The notes beneath the pieces are model-generated. The model was not told the DNA's origin. It was given only the letters and a program-made list of their open reading frames with translations, and made no database searches. Below are positions 1,698 to 9,526 of a stretch of 10,437 nt of DNA, in pieces; the first letter of the stretch is position 1, and every line of letters starts with the position of its first letter. Source of the DNA: Candidatus Woesearchaeota archaeon. GTDB taxonomy: Archaea; Nanobdellota; Nanobdellia; Woesearchaeales; DSVV01. The stretch lies in the NCBI GenBank assembly GCA_043813525.1, contig JBDRKY010000082.1, positions 1 to 10,437 of the forward strand, written 5' to 3'. A program made the translations under genes and the position numbers.

Positions 1698-1844
1698 TTA
1701 TCTTGCATTGACTTTTGTCAATGAAGACCTTGGCTTAAATAAAATCTTACTACCGCAATAAGGGCATCTAATCTTTTTTCTAAGATAATCCTGTGAAACA
1801 ACTTTATTGCATTCAAAACATTTGTATTCAGTCATTTTCTTCAT
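1698..1844 (-). CDS. rpoP: DNA-directed RNA polymerase subunit P (Rpo12/RpoP, zinc ribbon), 48 aa. It is not in the supplied ORF track because it is under 60 aa.
   Basis: Manual translation of the minus strand from ATG 1844 gives MKKMTEYKCFECNKVVSQDYLRKKIRCPYCGSKILFKPRSSLTKVNAR*. This matches the RpoP consensus Y.C..C.......L.....RCPYCG.KIL.K.R, with two CxxC pairs. It sits between L37ae and Pcc1, exactly as in the archaeal superoperon. It overlaps the 3' end of the L37ae ORF by 17 nt. The stop is at 1698-1700. Confidence 0.7.
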   Translation of the reverse strand: MKKMTEYKCFECNKVVSQDYLRKKIRCPYCGSKILFKPRSSLTKVNAR

Positions 1845-2211
1845 ATAAATCATTCAATGATTTTTTTTTAGGTTCTTCTGATTTTTTCTCAGAATACCTA
1901 AAAGTCTCTTCATCTGATTCTTCAGATTCATCCTCTTGCTCATCTAATTCTTCTACTGATTCTTCTTTTGATTCTGATTCAACAGCAGATCTTTTCTTCT
2001 TTGCTAAAGTATAAGCCTTGCCAGTAAACTTATTTTCACATTTACTGCATTGCCATATTCCTACAGCAATCCTCTTAACTTTAATCTGGTTACAAAAAGG
2101 ACATTTATGAAGTTTTCTCTGTTCTTTCTCAATCTCACCAAACCTAAGTTTAGGTGTCCTACCATATCTTGTTCCAAACCTTTTTATTGAACCTGTATTT
2201 ATTTTAGCCAT
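1828..2211 (-). CDS. rpl37ae: Ribosomal protein eL43 (L37ae), 127 aa, with an unusual roughly 55-aa acidic/Ser-rich C-terminal extension
   Basis: MAKINTGSIKRFGTRYGRTPKLRF....HKCPFCNQIKVKRIAVGIWQCSKCENKFTGKAYT is the canonical L37ae C4 zinc ribbon. The start is ATG 2211, with a TTAAATAAATA box about 20 nt upstream and no SD, so it is probably leaderless. The tail SAVESESKEESVEELDEQEDESEESDEE...LYEEND has no counterpart in typical eL43 proteins of about 90 aa. Confidence 0.85.
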   Translation of the reverse strand: MAKINTGSIKRFGTRYGRTPKLRFGEIEKEQRKLHKCPFCNQIKVKRIAVGIWQCSKCENKFTGKAYTLAKKKRSAVESESKEESVEELDEQEDESEESDEETFRYSEKKSEEPKKKSLNDLYEEND

Positions 2212-2243
2212 ATTTAATCACTTTGTATTTATTTAATCGAAAT

Positions 2244-2432
2244 GGGGCTGCCCAGACTTTCATAAAGTGATAAATTGTAAGCTGTATATAGTAGAATTCC
2301 TACCACTTACCACTAATTACTTACCACTCTTTTTGAACTGGGGTCCGCTGGTTTTTTATAAGGTTTGCTTAAACAATCTCAAGTAAAACCTGCCCAAACC
2401 AGCAAGGATAGACCAAACTACCCCACAGCCCC
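2244..2432. ncRNA. Candidate structured non-coding element or foreign GC-rich insertion of about 190 nt; class unknown
   Basis: Local GC is far above the window background. There is no ORF of 60 aa or more. Terminal GGGGCTG (2244-2250) is the exact reverse complement of CAGCCCC (2426-2432). Internal complementary pairs include GCTGG 2347-2351 with CCAGC 2399-2403, and GGGG 2340-2343 with CCCC 2421-2424. It also contains the TACCACT heptamer array at 2301-2328. Strand is undetermined. Confidence 0.25.
2301..2328. repeat. Tandem heptamer array TACCACT-TACCACT-AATTACT-TACCACT
   Basis: The array is read directly from the sequence: three perfect copies and one variant copy of a 7-mer in direct tandem, lying inside the GC-rich non-coding island. 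Confidence 0.6.
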
Positions 2433-2523: not shown

Positions 2524-3417
2524 TTATTTCGTTAAAATAACAATTTCATCATCTATAAGCAAAGTATGCTCATGCTGAGACACCATACCATCACTAACTT
2601 CAGGCAATGGCGAATATTCATGTAAATTCTTATTCAATATGAGCTGCCTCAAAGCAAGCTTAACCCTGTTTTCAGGGAATTTCTTAATAAGATCCCTTGT
2701 TGAAAAGGGAAGCTTATTAAAACCTTTTATTTCCTCAAAAACTTTTCTGGCAAACATATCTCTTATGGGCTTATCATTAACCTGCATAAAAATATTAGGA
2801 TGGCTGCCTTCCTTGATCCTGCCGCCGCCTGTGGTTGCAAACGGCTCAATAGCAACAATCATGCCTTTCTCAAGCTTTGTTGTATCACCATTATTATAAT
2901 TAGGGATTGTTGGAGCAGTATGAACCATAAACAGATCTAAACCATGACCTGAAAGATTTCTTATAGGATTAAACCCATAACCTGTGATTGTCTCACTTAT
3001 AACTTTACCAATTTCACCAAGTGTCACACCTGCTTTTATAATCTTCAAAGCATTATCTACTGCAACCCTGCTTGCCTCAACCAGCTTATCATATTTTCCA
3101 GACAGATCAAAGGTATAAGCAGTATCACCTATCGCACCATTATAACACACGCCAATATCTACTTTAAGCAGTTGCTCTTTCAATATTGTCTGATCATCAG
3201 GAGATGGAGTATAATGAGCTGCAAAATTATCTGAACTAAGATTGACAGGAAATCCAGGCTGCGCTCCAAAAGCACGTATCTTATCCTCAATCTGTTCTGC
3301 CACATCTAACAATTTAGCACCTGGCTTGATTATTGTCTTAGAAAATTCCCTAACATCAGAAGCAATCTTACCTGCTTTTATCCAATCTGCATATTTTTTT
3401 TCAAGTTCTTTGTTCAT
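2524..3417 (-). CDS. map: Methionine aminopeptidase, type 2 (archaeal MAP2), about 297 aa from ATG 3417 (MNKELEKKY...)
   Basis: The protein aligns along its whole length with archaeal MAP2, including FPVNLS.N..AAHYTP, KVD.GV...G.I.DTA.T, NLSGH, and AIEPFAT.G.G plus QHEHT metal-binding motifs. A GGTG SD lies 6 nt upstream of ATG 3417. The longer ORF-track start at 3468 would overlap the upstream gene. Confidence 0.9.
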   Translation of the reverse strand: MNKELEKKYADWIKAGKIASDVREFSKTIIKPGAKLLDVAEQIEDKIRAFGAQPGFPVNLSSDNFAAHYTPSPDDQTILKEQLLKVDIGVCYNGAIGDTAYTFDLSGKYDKLVEASRVAVDNALKIIKAGVTLGEIGKVISETITGYGFNPIRNLSGHGLDLFMVHTAPTIPNYNNGDTTKLEKGMIVAIEPFATTGGGRIKEGSHPNIFMQVNDKPIRDMFARKVFEEIKGFNKLPFSTRDLIKKFPENRVKLALRQLILNKNLHEYSPLPEVSDGMVSQHEHTLLIDDEIVILTK

Positions 3418-3436
3418 GTATAACACCTTTATTAAA

Positions 3437-5332
3437 TCATTTCTTCTCCGCAAGATCAATAACACCATCTAATTTTTTTATCTCATTTATAATATCTTTC
3501 AATGCAATCGTATTATTCATCTCAACACTCAATGTGGTAACAACACTATCTTTCTTAGGTTTGGTGGTCACATTTTTAATATTAAGCCCGTAAGTAGCAA
3601 TAAGATTGAGAACATTTGCAAGAATACCTATCTTATCTTCAAGACTCAGATTTAATTTAATCACTGGAGATGTTCTCTGCTCTATCCATAAGACAGGCAC
3701 TTCTTTGTTCTTATCAAGAGAATATATATTTGGACAGTCTTTCTTATGCACTGTGATTTTTTTATCTTTTGTGTAAAAACCAATGATAGGATCCAATAGT
3801 TTAGGATTGCAGCATTTAGATATCTTTAACGGCGCTTTCTTGCCTACAATCTGGATACGCCTTGATAAATCAACAGGTAATTCTGATAAATCTTTCTTCT
3901 GCTGATCTATATCCATATTCAATATAGATTTTATCTTGCTTCTTGCCTTGTTGGTCTTTACAAATTTTAACCATTGACGGGAAGGCGTTGCATTCTTATT
4001 CACAATAATCTCTATGATATCTCCAGAATCAACAGCAGTCTCCAGAGGGACAATCTTATTATTGACAAGAGCCTTAGAACAATGATTGCCAATATTTGTA
4101 TGAACCATGTAAGCAAAATCAACAGGAGTAGAACCACCAGGCAAAGTAATAGGATCACCTTTTGGGGTAAAAACAACAATCTCATCCTCGAAAAGATCAA
4201 TCTTCAAAGTTTCAATGAATTCTGAAGAATTGCTTGCTAAATTTCTCCATTCCAACATCTGTTTCAGCCATGATATCTTCTTATCAAACAGTTTATCACG
4301 TTCAGTGCCATGATAACGCCAATGCGCTGCAACACCATCCTCAGCAATATGATGCATCTGCTCTGTCCTTATCTGAAATTCCAAAATCTTGCCTGAATCA
4401 GTAATCACAGTAGTATGCAAACTCTGATAACCATTTGATTTTGGCACAGAGATATAATCCTTGAACCTATGTGGAATTGGCTTATTATGGTCATGTATCA
4501 GACCTAAAGCAGCATAACAATCAGGAATAGTCTTTGTGATTATCCTAATAGCAATAAGATCATAAATCTCATTAAAGCCAACATTCTTCTTTTTCATCTT
4601 TTTATAGATACTATAGAAGTATTTTGCACGGCCAGACACATCAGCAGATATATTTTTATCATTAAGGCTTTTTTTTATTGATCTAATAAGATCTTGAGTA
4701 TGTTTTTCACGCTCATTTCTCTTTTCAGCAATCTTGCTTGCTAAAAACCTATAAACATCAGGCTCAATATACCTAAGGGATAAATCTTCCAACTCACCTT
4801 TTACCCTCCACATGCCAAGCTTATGAGCGATAGGAGCATAAATCTCTAAAGTTTCCTTTGACACGCGTTTCTGCTTATCCTTAAGCAATACTTTCAAAGT
4901 TCTCATGTTATGAAGCCTGTCAGCAAGCTTGATCAGCATAACCCTTATATCCCTTGCTGTTGCGATGAGAATCTTCCTTAAATTTTCTGAAGTATAATCT
5001 TCTTTATTATCAAAATGCACCTTGTCAATCTTTGTGACACCTTCAACAAGACCTGCTATCTCACTGCCAAAAATACTGTTGATCTTTTCAATGCTGATAG
5101 AAGTGTCCTCAACAATGTCATGAAGCAAAGCAGCACATATTGTAGCTGAATCTGCTTTCAGATCAAGAAGGATATTGGCAACTTCAATAGGATGTGAAAA
5201 ATACTCTTCACCACCAACTCTCTTCTGGCCTTTGTGAGCTTTTTCTGCCAAGACATATGCTTTCTTGATTAAAGCGACATCTGCTTTTGGATTATATCTT
5301 AATATTGTTTTAATAAGTTCAGATAATCTCAT
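3437..5332 (-). CDS. Long bifunctional RelA/SpoT homologue (Rel-type (p)ppGpp synthetase/hydrolase) of about 631 aa, with HD hydrolase, synthetase, TGS, CC and ACT domains
   Basis: The N-terminal HD domain carries HP...LLHDIVEDT. The synthetase domain has GRAKYFYSIYKKMKKK, EIYDLIAIRII, YQSLHTTV and EFQIRTEQMHHIAE. The TGS region reads VFTPKGD...LPGGSTPVDFAY.VHT.IG, there is a KCCNP Cys motif, and the C-terminus is ACT-like. The probable start is ATG 5332 (MRLSELIKT...); the listed 5338 codon is TTG. The TGA stop at 3437-3439 lies 17 nt upstream of the MAP2 ATG. Confidence 0.9.
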   Translation of the reverse strand: MRLSELIKTILRYNPKADVALIKKAYVLAEKAHKGQKRVGGEEYFSHPIEVANILLDLKADSATICAALLHDIVEDTSISIEKINSIFGSEIAGLVEGVTKIDKVHFDNKEDYTSENLRKILIATARDIRVMLIKLADRLHNMRTLKVLLKDKQKRVSKETLEIYAPIAHKLGMWRVKGELEDLSLRYIEPDVYRFLASKIAEKRNEREKHTQDLIRSIKKSLNDKNISADVSGRAKYFYSIYKKMKKKNVGFNEIYDLIAIRIITKTIPDCYAALGLIHDHNKPIPHRFKDYISVPKSNGYQSLHTTVITDSGKILEFQIRTEQMHHIAEDGVAAHWRYHGTERDKLFDKKISWLKQMLEWRNLASNSSEFIETLKIDLFEDEIVVFTPKGDPITLPGGSTPVDFAYMVHTNIGNHCSKALVNNKIVPLETAVDSGDIIEIIVNKNATPSRQWLKFVKTNKARSKIKSILNMDIDQQKKDLSELPVDLSRRIQIVGKKAPLKISKCCNPKLLDPIIGFYTKDKKITVHKKDCPNIYSLDKNKEVPVLWIEQRTSPVIKLNLSLEDKIGILANVLNLIATYGLNIKNVTTKPKKDSVVTTLSVEMNNTIALKDIINEIKKLDGVIDLAEKK

Positions 5333-5338
5333 CAACAA

Positions 5339-5469
5339 TAAGTATAGATAAGAGATTTATAAATCTTTTCTCCGAAAAATTTATAAATGAATGTTGACAG
5401 GATAAAATCAGTAATTAATCAACCATTAAAATTAAATAAGCTTAAATTGCAAAAAAAGAGGTGTTTAGT
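5339..5469. promoter_or_regulatory. Divergent intergenic or promoter region with two copies of the palindromic TATA-like box ATTTATAAAT (5355-5364, extended to GATTTATAAATC at 5354-5365, and 5379-5388)
   Basis: The region lies between the minus-strand RSH gene (start 5332) and plus-strand gene A (start 5470). The first box is 23-32 nt upstream of the RSH ATG, consistent with a leaderless mRNA. The second box could serve the plus-strand operon. The SD AGAGGTG sits at 5457-5463. Confidence 0.35.
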
Positions 5470-6048
5470 ATGAGATTTTCAAAGAATGCATCGCTGAACC
5501 TATCAGTAAATGCGATAGTTGTGTTTGTACTTGCGTTTTCTATGCTTGGTGTAGGATTGTATGTCACAAACCTTATCAGAGAGAATGTCGGTAGCGGAAT
5601 CACATCTGTTGTAAATATCCAAGACCTTAAAAGCCCGCCTTCTGCAGAAGACCCAATCACTGTTTCCAGAGAAATCACCTTGAAAAAAGGCAAAGAGATT
5701 AAGATTGATATTGGTTATTATAACAAAAACACAGAAGAAGCAACAAATGCAAAGATTGGAATTGGAGATTGTATAAAACCTGATGGCGAACAACTGATAC
5801 TTGAAGGTGGTGGTACCTCAGATGATGCATTGTTAGTAGTTTCTCCATTTGCAAAATCAGTAGGAGCAAGCGAAGGAAAAGGATACAAAGTAAAAATTGT
5901 AGATAACTCTAAAAATACAGGTGATCCATTGACAACAGGAAGTTATGTATGTACAATGATTGTATTTGACCCTGCATTAGGAACAGGATGGGGATCATAT
6001 GATGAACCATATGAATCAAAACAATTCTTCCTGAATCTAGTATCATAA
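5470..6048 (+). CDS. Secreted or surface protein A (192 aa) with a pilin-like (class III / type IV prepilin-like) N-terminus; function unknown
   Basis: The SD AGAGGTG is followed by 6 nt and then ATG 5470; the listed GTG 5461 lies inside the SD. The N-terminus MRFSKNA-SLNLSVNAIVVFVLAFSMLGVGLYV is short and basic and then runs into a hydrophobic helix of about 24 aa. It is followed by a Gly/Thr/Ser-rich, probably beta-rich domain with two Cys. No recognisable catalytic motif is present. Confidence 0.5.
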   Translation: MRFSKNASLNLSVNAIVVFVLAFSMLGVGLYVTNLIRENVGSGITSVVNIQDLKSPPSAEDPITVSREITLKKGKEIKIDIGYYNKNTEEATNAKIGIGDCIKPDGEQLILEGGGTSDDALLVVSPFAKSVGASEGKGYKVKIVDNSKNTGDPLTTGSYVCTMIVFDPALGTGWGSYDEPYESKQFFLNLVS

Positions 6049-6076
6049 ATTAATTTATCAAAAAGAGGTGATGATT

Positions 6077-6328
6077 ATGGCAAAAACAAAAAAATCAAAT
6101 GAAAGCAAAGCAGGAAAGAAAAAACTAACTGAAGACCAGGAATTTGAGATTATGAAATTAGTATTAGACAAATTTCTGTGGCTGGGATTTGCAATAATGG
6201 GTGTTGGATTCTTTGTTGCAGTATCTGGCGGATCTTTGTTCAACGCTGTATCTTACTTAGTAGCAGGAGCAGTTGTGCTAGTATTGTTTATGATCCTGAT
6301 TGTGAGAGAATACGAAATAATAAAATAG
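6077..6328 (+). CDS. Small two-TM membrane protein B (83 aa) with a Lys-rich cytoplasmic N-terminus
   Basis: It uses the same SD geometry: AGAGGTG at 6064-6070, then 6 nt, then ATG 6077. It has two hydrophobic helices, FLWLGFAIMGVGFFVAVSGG and AVSYLVAGAVVLVLFMILIV, and shares the GVGFF motif with genes A and D. It lies 28 nt downstream of gene A. Confidence 0.5.
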   Translation: MAKTKKSNESKAGKKKLTEDQEFEIMKLVLDKFLWLGFAIMGVGFFVAVSGGSLFNAVSYLVAGAVVLVLFMILIVREYEIIK

Positions 6329-6364
6329 GTGCTTTAGTGTTAGGGTTAGGTGCTAAGAGTTAAT

Positions 6365-6390
6365 AGTTTGTACTCAAACTTTTTGTTCTT
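6365..6390 (+). terminator. Hairpin plus T-tract, AGTTTG-TACT-CAAACT-TTTTGTTCTT, probably a terminator after genes A and B
   Basis: A perfect 6-bp stem with a 4-nt loop is immediately followed by a T-rich run. It is preceded by two copies of TAGGTGCT (6326-6333 and 6347-6354). Confidence 0.35.
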
Positions 6391-6435
6391 AACATCCAGC
6401 ATCTAAAAGCTAACACCTGATTAAAGGTGATAATA

Positions 6436-7233
6436 GTGAAGAAAAAAGTTTTTATATTTTTTAGTATCATAATTCTTTGTATGGCTCTACTGATAATTGC
6501 AGGTTGCGGAGGAGAAAAGGAGTGCAGGGAAAACTCAGACTGTTCTGCAGGCAGCTGCTTTGATGTGAAATGTGAAGATAATAAATGTATAAAGACAGCA
6601 CAGCCAGACTGCTGCGGCAACCTGATGTGCGAATCTGAAGCTGGAGAAAATTCATGCAATTGCAAAAGTGACTGCAAAAAACCAAAATGTGAAGGTAAAT
6701 TTGTAGTAAAAGAAAGGGGAAGCAAAAAATATTATGGAGAATATCTTGAATATATGTGCAAAGATGATAAATGCATGCTCACATTCGATGAAAAATCAGT
6801 CAAGAAAATTCCACTCCTTAGTGAAAAAACAATAAATAATGTTAATCTGGAATTAGGTGTCACATTCAACAAGCCATTTGATATGACTAACGATAAAGTG
6901 ATGATTGCATTAACACTTAAAGATTATGATCAAAATAAGGCAAAGATGCCATTCACTGTCAAAAGCATCAAGATAATGGATGGTGACCTGCTCTATGGAC
7001 AGACTAACACAAATAAAGAGCTTGTACAGATTGGCGCTGGGATAAAAGAATCTGTTCCTTTAACTTTAGATCCAGAATCAAAAGAAGAAGAAAAATCATT
7101 GACATTGAAAGTTGATTATGAAATGACAAAGATTAATTCCAAAGGAGAAGAAGAGCTAATAAGAGATAGTTTTGTTGAAAAGTTCTCACAAAAAATATTT
7201 TTGATTGTGACAGGTGAGGCTGATTTAGAGTGA
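6436..7233 (+). CDS. Cysteine-rich secreted lipoprotein C (about 265 aa from GTG 6436; the ORF track starts at GTG 6427)
   Basis: The SD AAGGTG at 6424-6429 is followed by 6 nt and then GTG 6436, giving MKKKVFIFFSIIILCMALLIIAGC. That is a basic n-region, a hydrophobic h-region and a lipobox-like IAGC. The following approximately 65 aa contain about 16 Cys (CGGEKECRENSDCSAGSC...CCGNLMCESEAG.NSCNCKSDCKKPKCEGK). After that comes a beta-rich domain of about 170 aa with no recognisable motif. Confidence 0.5.
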   Translation: MKKKVFIFFSIIILCMALLIIAGCGGEKECRENSDCSAGSCFDVKCEDNKCIKTAQPDCCGNLMCESEAGENSCNCKSDCKKPKCEGKFVVKERGSKKYYGEYLEYMCKDDKCMLTFDEKSVKKIPLLSEKTINNVNLELGVTFNKPFDMTNDKVMIALTLKDYDQNKAKMPFTVKSIKIMDGDLLYGQTNTNKELVQIGAGIKESVPLTLDPESKEEEKSLTLKVDYEMTKINSKGEEELIRDSFVEKFSQKIFLIVTGEADLE

Positions 7234-7868
7234 GAAAGGGAAAAAAGAACAGGATAAGAAAAAATAAAAAAGGATTTGAACTAAGCATCAATTTCATAGT
7301 TATGATGATACTTGCTTTAGTAACATTAGGTGTTGGCTTCTTCTTTGCAAAGAACATATTCAGCCATACTATAGATATAGGGGAGCAGCTTGATGCACAG
7401 ACAAAGACACAGATAGAATCTAAATTAAGGGATCCAGCATCTTTAGTAGCAGTTGGCCTTAACAGAAAGGTAATAACTAGAGGAGATCATGATACATTTG
7501 GTATTGGTGTTGCAAACAGGAACAGTAAAAAAGGATATTTCTATCTCGAAGTTTCATGCAAACTTGGTAATTTTAAAAATAAAGAAGGTGTAAATGAAGA
7601 TCTTCCTGTCTTATGCCAAGAAGAAGAGACATGCTGTAGCAAATGGATACAGGCAGAAAAAAAAGGAGAAAACTTATTCAGGATTGATGTAGGTGAACTT
7701 AATCCTACTGGATTTGATGTTGGAACATTATTCTTTAACATAGACAAGAAAGCCAAACCAGGATTGTATGTTTATGATGTACAAGCAAAGAGAACTGATG
7801 CAAAGATGGGTGAACAGGGAAAACAAAGCTATGATTCTGTAAAGAAGATATATGTTGAAGTTCCTTAA
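7230..7868 (+). CDS. Class III signal peptide (archaeal type IV pilin-like) protein D, 212 aa
   Basis: The GTG start overlaps the gene C stop as GTGA (7230-7233), which implies translational coupling. The N-terminus MRKGKKNRIRKNKKG|FELSINFIVMMILALVTLGVGFFFA has the KKG-then-hydrophobic-helix architecture of archaeal prepilin peptidase substrates. The extracellular domain has 4 Cys. An oligo-T tract follows the stop. Confidence 0.5.
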   Translation: MRKGKKNRIRKNKKGFELSINFIVMMILALVTLGVGFFFAKNIFSHTIDIGEQLDAQTKTQIESKLRDPASLVAVGLNRKVITRGDHDTFGIGVANRNSKKGYFYLEVSCKLGNFKNKEGVNEDLPVLCQEEETCCSKWIQAEKKGENLFRIDVGELNPTGFDVGTLFFNIDKKAKPGLYVYDVQAKRTDAKMGEQGKQSYDSVKKIYVEVP

Positions 7869-8457: not shown

Positions 8458-8628
8458 GTATGTAAAAAGTCTCCTAATAAGGAATATTATTACAGCCAGT
8501 TTTCATCATGGAAATCTTACAATTAAAATCATAAAGGAGCTCCATACCTTAATGTCTCACGACCTGTATTGTGATAAAAACAAACATAAGGCAGCAATAA
8601 TATTCTAAAAAGGAGACTTTTTACATAC
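8458..8628. mobile_element. MITE-like non-autonomous element, 171 bp, with 18-bp perfect terminal inverted repeats flanked by an 8-bp direct repeat (target-site duplication GATTATCT)
   Basis: GTATGTAAAAAGTCTCCT at 8458-8475 is the exact reverse complement of AGGAGACTTTTTACATAC at 8611-8628. The inverted repeat continues imperfectly for about another 20 bp (..GAATATTATTaCaGCC against ..AATATTATTgCtGCC). GATTATCT occurs in direct orientation at 8450-8457 and 8629-8636. There is a central GGAGCTCC palindrome at 8536-8543. The element has no ORF of its own. The right end lies inside the last 8 codons of tpiA. Confidence 0.55.
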
Positions 8629-9390
8629 GATTATCTCAATGAACTGAGTAGGATCCAAACCAGCACCACCTACAAGAAAACCATTGATATTCTTCTGCTT
8701 AATCAGTTCTGATGCATTATTTGGCTTTACACTGCCGCCATAAAGAATCCTTAACTGCATAGCTGTTGTCTGAGAATACATGTCTGTGAGCTGTTCACGT
8801 ATGAATGCATGAACCTCTTCTGCCTGTTCTGGTGTCGCTGTCTTGCCTGTGCCAATTGCCCAGACCGGTTCATATGCAATGACTAAAGCCTTGACCTGAT
8901 TTTCAGAAACATTCTTTAAACATGCTTTCAATTGTGTCAAAAGAACATCATTTGTCTTTTTCTTTTTCCTCTCTTCTTCTGTCTCACCAATGCAAAGTAT
9001 TGGATTAAAACCATGATTAAAAGCAGAGATTACTTTTTTATTTATCAGCTGATTCGGTTCTTTGAATATGTGCCGCCTCTCTGAATGACCTAAAATTACA
9101 TATTCACATAACTCCTTTAACATAATAGGAGATATTTCTCCAGTAAACGCTCCGCTGTCTTCACAATACATGTTCTGTGCACCTAATTTTATCTTTTCAT
9201 TCTTTATCTTTGATATTTCACTTAATGAGATGAATGATGGACAGATTAAAATTTCGTTTCCATCATTATCACCACTAAAAAAACCATCTTTAACTAATTC
9301 ATCAATTTTACCATTAAATTCATTAAAAAAATCAACAGCTTCCTTCACAGTCTTGTTCATCTTCCAGTTTGCCGCAATCAGATTATTCAT
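8605..9390 (-). CDS. tpiA: Triosephosphate isomerase, bacterial-type, about 261 aa from ATG 9390 (MNNLIAANWKMN...)
   Basis: The protein carries AANWKMN, GAQN, ILGHSERR, LCIGE, IAYEPVWAIGTGKTAT and YGGSV..N motifs. These are those of the bacterial/eukaryotic TIM type, not the short archaeal type with INYK and about 220 aa. GGTG lies 5 nt before ATG 9390. The ORF-track start at 9465 adds 25 non-homologous residues. The last 7 codons and the TAG stop (8605-8607) lie within the MITE-like element. Confidence 0.9.
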   Translation of the reverse strand: MNNLIAANWKMNKTVKEAVDFFNEFNGKIDELVKDGFFSGDNDGNEILICPSFISLSEISKIKNEKIKLGAQNMYCEDSGAFTGEISPIMLKELCEYVILGHSERRHIFKEPNQLINKKVISAFNHGFNPILCIGETEEERKKKKTNDVLLTQLKACLKNVSENQVKALVIAYEPVWAIGTGKTATPEQAEEVHAFIREQLTDMYSQTTAMQLRILYGGSVKPNNASELIKQKNINGFLVGGAGLDPTQFIEIIVCKKSPF

Positions 9391-9526
9391 ATTATCACCC
9401 TCATTAGTTTTAAATATAATATATTTGCTGAACATATTATGATATAAATAATTAATGGAAAACAAAATTTTTATATACTAAAGGAATATGCAATATATTA
9501 AACATATAAACATTTGAGGTGTAAAA
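9391..9526. promoter_or_regulatory. Divergent promoter region between tpiA (-) and the stomatin gene (+)
   Basis: The intergenic stretch is AT-rich with TATA-like TTTTATATACT at 9467-9477 and ATATTATATTTA on the minus strand about 30 nt upstream of the tpiA start. The SD GAGGTG at 9516-9521 sits 5 nt before ATG 9527. Confidence 0.3.

Follow-up and report, generated by a model that had tools for sequence, protein, structure and literature searches.

A predicted bifunctional Rel-type (p)ppGpp synthetase/hydrolase without an AH domain in a Woesearchaeota archaeon

Why should an archaeon carry a gene for a bacterial alarmone enzyme, and what could the enzyme do there? The question is raised by a 10,437-nucleotide contig of Candidatus Woesearchaeota archaeon (JBDRKY010000082.1, assembly GCA_043813525.1; the whole contig is called the window below), in which a gene for a long RelA/SpoT homologue (RSH) lies among archaeal genes. 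Signalling by (p)ppGpp, a starvation signal, is regarded as bacterial and plastidial. The RSH survey of Atkinson et al. (2011; PMC3153485) found no long RSH in archaea, (p)ppGpp was undetected in Haloferax or Sulfolobus (PMC8646023), and a 2023 review of archaeal second messengers describes (p)ppGpp as undescribed in archaea and as probably playing no important role there (PMC10249747). The part of the survey by Li et al. (2021; mSystems, PMC8407392) devoted to these genes nevertheless reports RelA/SpoT in 69.0% of Diapherotrites, 41.7% of Woesearchaeota, 21.3% of Pacearchaeota and 19.0% of Nanoarchaeota, and predicts that the DPANN genes are bacterial in origin. Moreover, the exact protein of the window is present at NCBI (P0001) as a ‘bifunctional (p)ppGpp synthetase/guanosine-3',5'-bis(diphosphate) 3'-pyrophosphohydrolase’. 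As the presence of the gene in DPANN archaea and its bacterial origin are thus already published or annotated, finding the gene is not new in itself. The new elements are confined to an architectural variant, the lack of the AH domain, and to the residue-level evidence presented here.

The open reading frame (ORF) has the position and length given in a preliminary description of this DNA (3437-5332, 631 aa; Table 1). In the ORF list the frame extends over 3437-5338 on the minus strand when opened from a TTG codon, and the ATG at 5332 yields the 631-residue protein. The window is AT-rich, with a GC content of about 28-39%. The protein reaches 707.4 bits against the NCBIfam model TIGR00691 (spoT_relA; cutoff 499.2), which places it in the long RSH family, and stays below the cutoffs of the gammaproteobacterial equivalogs for SpoT (NF008303, 567 versus 947) and RelA (NF008124, 436 versus 728). 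A phmmer search of PDB sequences aligned Bacillus subtilis Rel (PDB entry 6YXA) to residues 12-473 of the window protein with an E-value of 1e-154 and 49-50% identity (49% by Foldseek). An AlphaFold2 (AF2) model built on the alignment of the archaeal clade described below (predicted local distance difference test score, pLDDT, 80.2; predicted TM-score, pTM, 0.69) has RelA, Rel and SpoT as its top fold matches in Foldseek. Pfam and NCBIfam also identified the archaeal hallmark neighbours that had been listed, namely type II methionine aminopeptidase (MAP2), L37ae, RpoP, Pcc1 and prefoldin beta, and added UPF0147; all six are of archaeal or eukaryotic type and are encoded downstream of the RSH gene on its strand. 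It is supported that the window gene is a bacterial-derived long RSH within a genuine archaeal genome.

Are the two active sites intact? Residues were mapped through the alignment to B. subtilis Rel (numbering offset -6), and their conservation was scored across 116 aligned relatives from the database, which are 54-78% identical to the window protein. The hydrolase set is complete (R38, H47, H71, D72, E75, D76, D138 and N142) and invariant in these relatives except at D76, where 88 have Asp and 28 have Glu. The synthetase set is also complete (R235, K237, S241, K245, D258, R263, K298, Y302, H306, E318, Q320 and R322). It includes an RXKD motif (R289-F-K291-D292), the charge motif which, as opposed to EXDD, separates bifunctional Rel from monofunctional RelA. 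The synthetase residues, K291 and D292 among them, are invariant in the relatives except for R289 (Arg in 90, Lys in 20, His in five and Thr in one). All of the motifs first noticed by eye were recovered (HDIVEDT, SGRAKYFYSIYKKM, YQSLHTTV and EFQIRTEQMH), and the proposal that hydrolase and synthetase are both intact is borne out by the full mapping, in which a check for catalytic substitutions found none. In the TGS domain, H411 aligns to H420 of B. subtilis Rel and H432 of Escherichia coli RelA, the histidine that stacks on the CCA end of the tRNA, and it is invariant in the 116 relatives, as are the zinc-finger residues C507, C508, H529 and C533. PF28438 (RelA_RIS) is precomputed for the protein and its homologues, and residues 557-630 of the AF2 model adopt the beta-alpha-beta-beta-alpha-beta fold of an ACT/RRM domain. 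Measured as the mean majority-residue frequency in the clade, conservation is 0.80 in linker helix 1, 0.77 in TGS and 0.64 in RIS/ZFD, and is lowest in ACT/RRM (0.44) and in the linker that replaces the AH domain (0.37). The invariance of both active sites and of the tRNA sensor across the clade shows them to be under purifying selection, and the protein is most likely a Rel-type bifunctional (p)ppGpp synthetase/hydrolase, as judged from its residues.

How widespread is such a protein in archaea, and where did it come from? The best 120 of 8000 matches of a word-indexed search are all 55-78% identical to the window RSH and nearly all 614-693 aa long; every one of these 120 that carries an organism name is from Woesearchaeota or Nanoarchaeia. 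More than 100 clusters (90% identity) of archaeal-clade RSHs fall within this range of 55-78% identity. The view that long RSHs are rare in archaea thus fails for this lineage, given these clusters and the frequency of RelA/SpoT in Woesearchaeota in the survey passage cited above. The nearest bacterial matches, in Clostridia and Actinobacteria, are about 49-53% identical. Phylogeny was restricted to neighbour-joining (NJ) trees, one of 81 sequences (200 bootstraps) and one of 221 sequences (100 bootstraps) that included unbiased 50%-cluster representatives. The archaeal clade is monophyletic in 182 of the 200 and 77 of the 100 bootstraps, respectively, and holds only sequences that lack the AH domain. 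Ten cluster representatives without AH, one of them from a Nanoarchaeota archaeon, were assigned to it by their tree position; for two divergent members (L015 and L038) the archaeal assignment combines record titles with tree position, Pfam scans of their flanks having been uninformative about the domain of life. The monophyly implies that the transfer was ancient. The simplest history would be a single ancient transfer from a bacterium to an archaeon, with AH lost no later than the base of the clade and the gene inherited vertically thereafter. The sister group in the 81-sequence tree is formed by bacteria of the Candidate Phyla Radiation (CPR; 133/200), a weak hint towards CPR/Patescibacteria as the donor.

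Some database records sit oddly with this distribution. Four AH-less RSHs (L005, L007, L009 and L012) are titled ‘uncultured Methanosarcinales archaeon’ and nest within the Woesearchaeota/Nanoarchaeota RSH clade, and a 2.4 kb contig titled ‘bacterium’ (L013), on which the match ends at the contig edge, encodes an RSH that is 69% identical to that of the window. In view of this nesting and this identity, the five record taxonomies are probably wrong.

The six-domain scheme of long RSHs (Loveland 2016; Takada 2021) places AH, also called Helical or HEL, between TGS and ZFD, at residues 485-580 of E. coli RelA. By this scheme the window protein has TGS, RIS/ZFD and ACT/RRM and has no AH. We compared E. 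coli RelA and SpoT, about 45 bacterial homologues and 48 archaeal-clade sequences. Residues 500-585 of RelA (86 aa), which comprise the AH core plus linker helix 2, correspond to only 9 aa in the window protein and to 7-16 aa in 48/48 archaeal-clade sequences, compared with 68-102 aa in bacterial homologues of standard length (703-782 aa). Only linker helix 1 is retained. The phmmer alignment to mycobacterial Rel (PDB entry 8FR8) likewise skips residues 546-661, and in the AF2 model TGS is followed by a helix (452-470) and a disordered stretch (475-487, pLDDT <50) and then by folded RIS/ZFD and ACT domains. The stretch L471-C507, in which the replacement linker lies, is 34-48 aa long across the clade. 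The overall length is 631-650 aa in 15 archaeal loci versus 703-782 aa in bacteria, the window RSH being about 100 aa shorter. RIS and ACT are kept in every clade member compared, so that the clade architecture reads HD-SYNTH-TGS-(short linker)-ZFD/RIS-ACT. The preliminary description had presented the protein as full-length with all five domains. This holds only under the five-domain scheme of 2011; AH, which canonical long RSHs have after TGS and before the Cys-rich domain, is deleted, and ‘full-length with all domains’ must therefore be corrected.

Shortening of AH also occurs sporadically in bacteria, for example in P0152 and in the Spirochaetaceae sequence L056, both of which fall outside the archaeal clade in the 221-sequence NJ tree. 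The gene context of P0152 (secDF-apt-rel-dtd) identifies it as bacterial, and AH shortening is thus not exclusive to archaea. In open-access papers and preprints we found no description of the AH-less architecture or of the biochemistry of such proteins; the clade-wide absence of AH, as read from these alignments, is a long-RSH architectural variant that we have not found described. The supplements of Jimmy et al., who distinguish 13 long-RSH subfamilies, contain no archaeal terms.

What, then, would this enzyme do? In the explanation that we favour, an ancestor of the archaeal clade gained a Rel-type gene from bacteria long ago, and the AH domain has been lost. The enzyme would make pppGpp/ppGpp from ATP and GTP/GDP and hydrolyse (p)ppGpp with Mn2+. 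Its C-terminal domains would set the balance between synthesis and hydrolysis, with TGS sensing uncharged tRNA and RIS/ACT docking on the ribosome. The contact that AH makes with the tRNA at its D-stem and acceptor arm would be gone, so that control of the enzyme may be altered or partly ribosome-independent. By analogy with Firmicutes, the alarmone would act on conserved GTPases and purine-salvage enzymes, and not on RNA polymerase.

We assign a probability of roughly 0.8 to this overall explanation, namely a resident, anciently acquired, AH-less bifunctional Rel. That the protein both synthesizes and hydrolyses (p)ppGpp appears highly probable from its residues. For the triggering of its synthesis by uncharged tRNA on the ribosome our estimate falls short of even odds. 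The strong conservation of TGS and of H411 and the retention of RIS and ACT speak for it. Several points weigh against parts of the explanation. Against triggering by ribosome and tRNA stand the missing AH domain and the foreign, archaeal ribosome. In B. subtilis Rel, isolated TGS does not bind tRNA stably, whereas a TGS-Helical fragment does so in an H420-dependent manner (PMC7797070); loss of AH could thus abolish classical activation. Finally, the trees, being NJ only, disagree on the sister group of the clade, which is CPR bacteria in 133/200 bootstraps with 81 sequences and another group in 6/100 with 221. A (p)ppGpp stringent response in this archaeon, which had been put forward as a possibility, is plausible. 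The more specific proposal that the AH-less DPANN Rel is a working stringent factor, which would dock through RIS/ACT, read the tRNA through H411 and make (p)ppGpp, with the loss of AH having adapted it to the ribosome and tRNA environment of archaea, seems to us doubtful as it stands.

No more and no less doubtful is the main rival, a ribosome-independent, hydrolase-biased enzyme resembling SpoT, which would be mostly compact and act chiefly as a hydrolase, or as a weak synthetase, under the control of metabolites or partner proteins and not of stalled ribosomes. Tamman et al. (PMC9974481) found that hydrolase specialization correlates with shorter flexible regions and that the compact tau-state does not permit ribosome binding. 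The AF2 model fits the full-length, compact SpoT (PDB entry 7QPR; query TM-score, TMq, 0.50-0.52; root-mean-square deviation, rmsd, about 15) better than ribosome-bound RelA (PDB entry 5IQR; TMq 0.43, rmsd 36), and the isolated C-terminal fragment of the bacterial protein needs AH for stable tRNA binding (PMC7797070). Yet the synthetase residues D258, E318, Y302 and H306 and those of the G-loop do not vary, which sets the protein apart from hydrolase-only SpoT; H411 and TGS are among the best-conserved parts of the protein; and the ribosome-docking RIS and ACT are present in every member. The HEL domain of SpoT supports the compact, hydrolase-active tau-state (PMC9974481), so that a protein without it need not tend towards that state.

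Much less probable is a product other than (p)ppGpp, such as (pp)pApp, or tRNA pyrophosphorylation like that of some toxic small alarmone synthetases (toxSAS). RSH synthetase domains are known to have diversified in substrate (bioRxiv 10.1101/2021.04.30.441581), but the window protein groups with long RSHs and not with toxSAS, shares 49-50% identity with B. subtilis Rel across the N-terminal domains and TGS, and combines a Rel-type RXKD, a G-loop and a guanine-stacking tyrosine with an intact partner HD hydrolase.

Is the gene at home in this genome? The four closest relatives (L001-L004, 74-78% identical) lie on contigs of 75.9, 21, 45.9 and 215 kb that were obtained in studies independent of one another (two bins from Saanich Inlet, one groundwater metagenome-assembled genome, MAG, and one Rifle MAG). 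The gene order of the whole window, SPFH-TIM-four ORFs-RSH-MAP2-L37ae-RpoP-Pcc1-PfdB-UPF0147-MscS, is kept on the 75.9 and 215 kb contigs, and parts of it on the 21 and 45.9 kb contigs. A 60%-identical homologue (L081) is embedded in a contig of 856,582 bp amid Kae1, S6e, Rpb4, L21e, NOG1 and ArgRS, and an M24 peptidase lies at a distance of two genes. The composition of the window gene is that of its surroundings: its GC content at third codon positions (GC3) is 0.31 versus 0.20-0.41 in its neighbours, its relative synonymous codon usage (RSCU) gives a correlation of 0.785 versus 0.75-0.86 in comparable genes, and no tetranucleotide break was found along the window (correlation 0.89-0.95 throughout). 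Over 17 archaeal loci of 25-53% GC, the GC content of the RSH gene follows that of its flanks with r=0.994. The checks for a chimeric origin that had been suggested (GC3, codon usage and tetranucleotides, with coordinates 3430-5340 as the place to look) thus revealed no break.

The geometry of a TATA-box-like TTTATAAAT, read by eye and centred 27 nt upstream of the RSH ATG, suggests an archaeal promoter and a leaderless RSH mRNA. The likely start codon of MAP2 (ATG at 3417) follows the RSH stop by 19 nt and is preceded at 6 nt by a GGTG (3427-3424). The adjacency of RSH and MAP2 is retained in L001-L004, and the two genes are probably co-transcribed, with RSH as the first gene of the operon. 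In a GC-rich subclade (about 50% GC; L081 8953-11893 and L005 6915-9902) the RSH gene lacks the upstream neighbours of the window and is divergently adjacent to Kae1/TsaD. In L081 an M24 peptidase is nonetheless close by, a hint that RSH genes may be loosely linked to translation-related genes.

A recent, lineage-specific transfer, in which this organism alone received the gene from a bacterium, is very improbable, somewhat more so than a different product. Bacterial matches do reach 49-53% identity in Clostridia and Actinobacteria, but the archaeal-clade clusters, more than 100 in number, are nearer to the window protein than any bacterium, the clade is monophyletic with an AH deletion common to all members, and the GC content of the gene is fully ameliorated to hosts of 25-53% GC. 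Horizontal acquisition, which had been proposed for the window, accordingly stands as far as the bacterial derivation is concerned and falls as a local event, the monophyly and the ameliorated GC content indicating that the acquisition was ancient and clade-wide. A bacterial relA/spoT fragment fused to archaeal DNA by assembly or binning, which the 10.4 kb length of this MAG contig and the bacterial type of both RSH and triosephosphate isomerase (TIM) might have suggested, can be dismissed in view of the synteny in independent assemblies (75.9 and 215 kb, and in part 21 and 45.9 kb), the homologue on the 856 kb archaeal contig, the uniform GC3, RSCU and tetranucleotide values, the archaeal-style TATA box and the gap of only 19 nt to MAP2. 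In this Woesearchaeota (DPANN) archaeon the RSH gene is resident and has been inherited vertically.

Table 1. Positions of the RSH gene, its domains and other features in the window; aa numbers refer to the RSH protein.
Feature	Position	Strand	Evidence or remark
Long RSH (Rel-type) coding sequence	3437-5332	-	631 aa plus TGA stop at 3439-3437; start ATG at 5332
HD (p)ppGpp hydrolase domain, aa 25-175	4808-5260	-	Pfam HD_4, E 2e-49
SYNTH (p)ppGpp synthetase domain, aa 234-342	4307-4633	-	Pfam RelA_SpoT, E 1e-40
TGS domain with H411, aa 385-443	4004-4180	-	Pfam TGS, E 3.5e-19
Linker helix 1 (aa ~448-471), then short variable disordered linker (aa ~472-492) in place of AH	3857-3991	-	
RIS/ZFD (conserved-cysteine zinc finger), aa ~493-550	3683-3856	-	Alignment to mycobacterial Rel 8FR8 residues 661-790
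ACT/RRM domain, aa 559-626	3455-3658	-	Pfam ACT_4 (E 2e-11, 44.8 bits versus cutoff 27), ACT, ACT_AHAS_ss
TATA-box-like TTTATAAAT	5355-5363	-	Centred 27 nt upstream of RSH ATG, read by eye
Type II methionine aminopeptidase (MAP2)	2524-3417	-	TIGR00501, 312 bits
tRNA-Pro(UGG) with two introns	2243-2432	-	Between MAP2 and L37ae
L37ae ORF	1828-2211	-	L37ae residues 5-82 match the Pfam domain
Four consecutive ORFs (195, 86, 268 and 212 aa)	5461-7868	+	No Pfam match; order conserved in L001-L004
Triosephosphate isomerase (TIM), bacterial-type	8605-9465	-	Bacterial TIM models, 183-304 bits

The remaining features of the window are collected in Table 1. The tRNA-Pro(UGG) gene was missed by ARAGORN, also with its intron options, and by Rfam, scans of the window with both having found no RNA; it was recognized by conservation with the orthologous gap in L004. 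Its introns measure about 41 nt in the anticodon loop and 75 nt in the T-loop, the latter being absent from the L004 copy, and splicing in silico gives a perfect tRNA-Pro cloverleaf of 75 nt. The TATA-like TTTATAAAG that lies about 55 nt upstream is kept in L004. The next gene, for L37ae, encodes a highly acidic, serine-rich C-terminal extension of about 45 aa (...ESESKEESVEELDEQEDESEESDEE...) outside the Pfam domain, and the alignment to L37ae in L001 and L004 is limited to the first 82-95 residues.

The attribution of a bacterial-type tpiA to the window is confirmed by the score of TIM against the archaeal model NF003302 (33 bits, cutoff 132) set beside its scores with bacterial models. The protein likely starts at an internal MNNLIAANWK, which gives about 261 aa, and it is conserved in L001, L003 and L004, a second bacterial-derived gene resident in the lineage. 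Of the four ORFs divergent from RSH, two have N-termini (...KKGFELSINFIVMMILALVTLGVGFFF is one) that look like the class III (type IV pilin-like) signal peptides of archaea, and the third is Cys-rich; together they may form a surface or pilus-like gene cluster.

That a large archaeal clade keeps both active sites and the tRNA sensor invariant is an argument for use of the alarmone by these organisms. With AH consistently lost, the clade offers a natural experiment on the coupling of long RSHs to ribosomes and tRNA under an archaeal translation apparatus, and with this variant an archaeal (p)ppGpp response, and its mode, becomes directly testable with recombinant protein. If the protein does prove to be a working stringent factor, it would give these archaea a bona fide alarmone response based on (p)ppGpp, the first in their domain.

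How does the AH-less protein compare with the systems already known? Among its closest known systems are the bifunctional Firmicutes enzymes B. subtilis Rel (PDB entries 6YXA, 6HTQ and 8ACU) and Streptococcus equisimilis RelSeq (PDB entry 1VJ7), with 49-50% identity over HD-SYNTH-TGS. The hydrolase residues (R44, H53, H77, D78, E81, D82, D144 and N148 in Rel numbering) and the synthetase residues (R241, K243, K251, D264, R269, RXKD, K304, Y308, H312, E323/324 and the Gln and Arg that follow) are identical, and the TGS histidine H420, the zinc-finger Cys/His residues and ACT/RRM are common to both. The Firmicutes proteins, however, have a Helical/AH domain of about 85-100 aa where the window protein, some 100 aa shorter, has a variable linker of about 20 aa that is predicted to be disordered, and the latter has an archaeal host, whose ribosome and RNA polymerase are likewise archaeal. 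E. coli RelA and SpoT (PDB entries 5IQR and 5KPX) belong to the same family, and their TGS, RIS/ZFD and ACT domains align with those of the window protein, which differs from RelA in its intact HD site and in having RXKD instead of EXDD. SpoT of Acinetobacter baumannii in the compact tau-state (PDB entry 7QPR) is the structure on which the AF2 model superposes best globally (TMq 0.50-0.52) and has the same domain order except for HEL, but it is a hydrolase-only enzyme with a degenerate SYNTH and a HEL domain, whereas the window protein has all of the SYNTH catalytic residues and no HEL. Reduction of the C-terminal domains recurs in long RSHs, as seen in CPR/Parcubacteria (L036, L043, L060 and L067), in L056 and in P0152; the CPR forms drop other parts, either ACT, or AH together with RIS, or everything after TGS. 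The DPANN RelA/SpoT genes of Li et al. (2021; PMC8407392) represent the same phenomenon as the gene described here; the relevant passage of that survey deals with presence or absence and origin, and the present analysis sets the architecture and the residues beside it.

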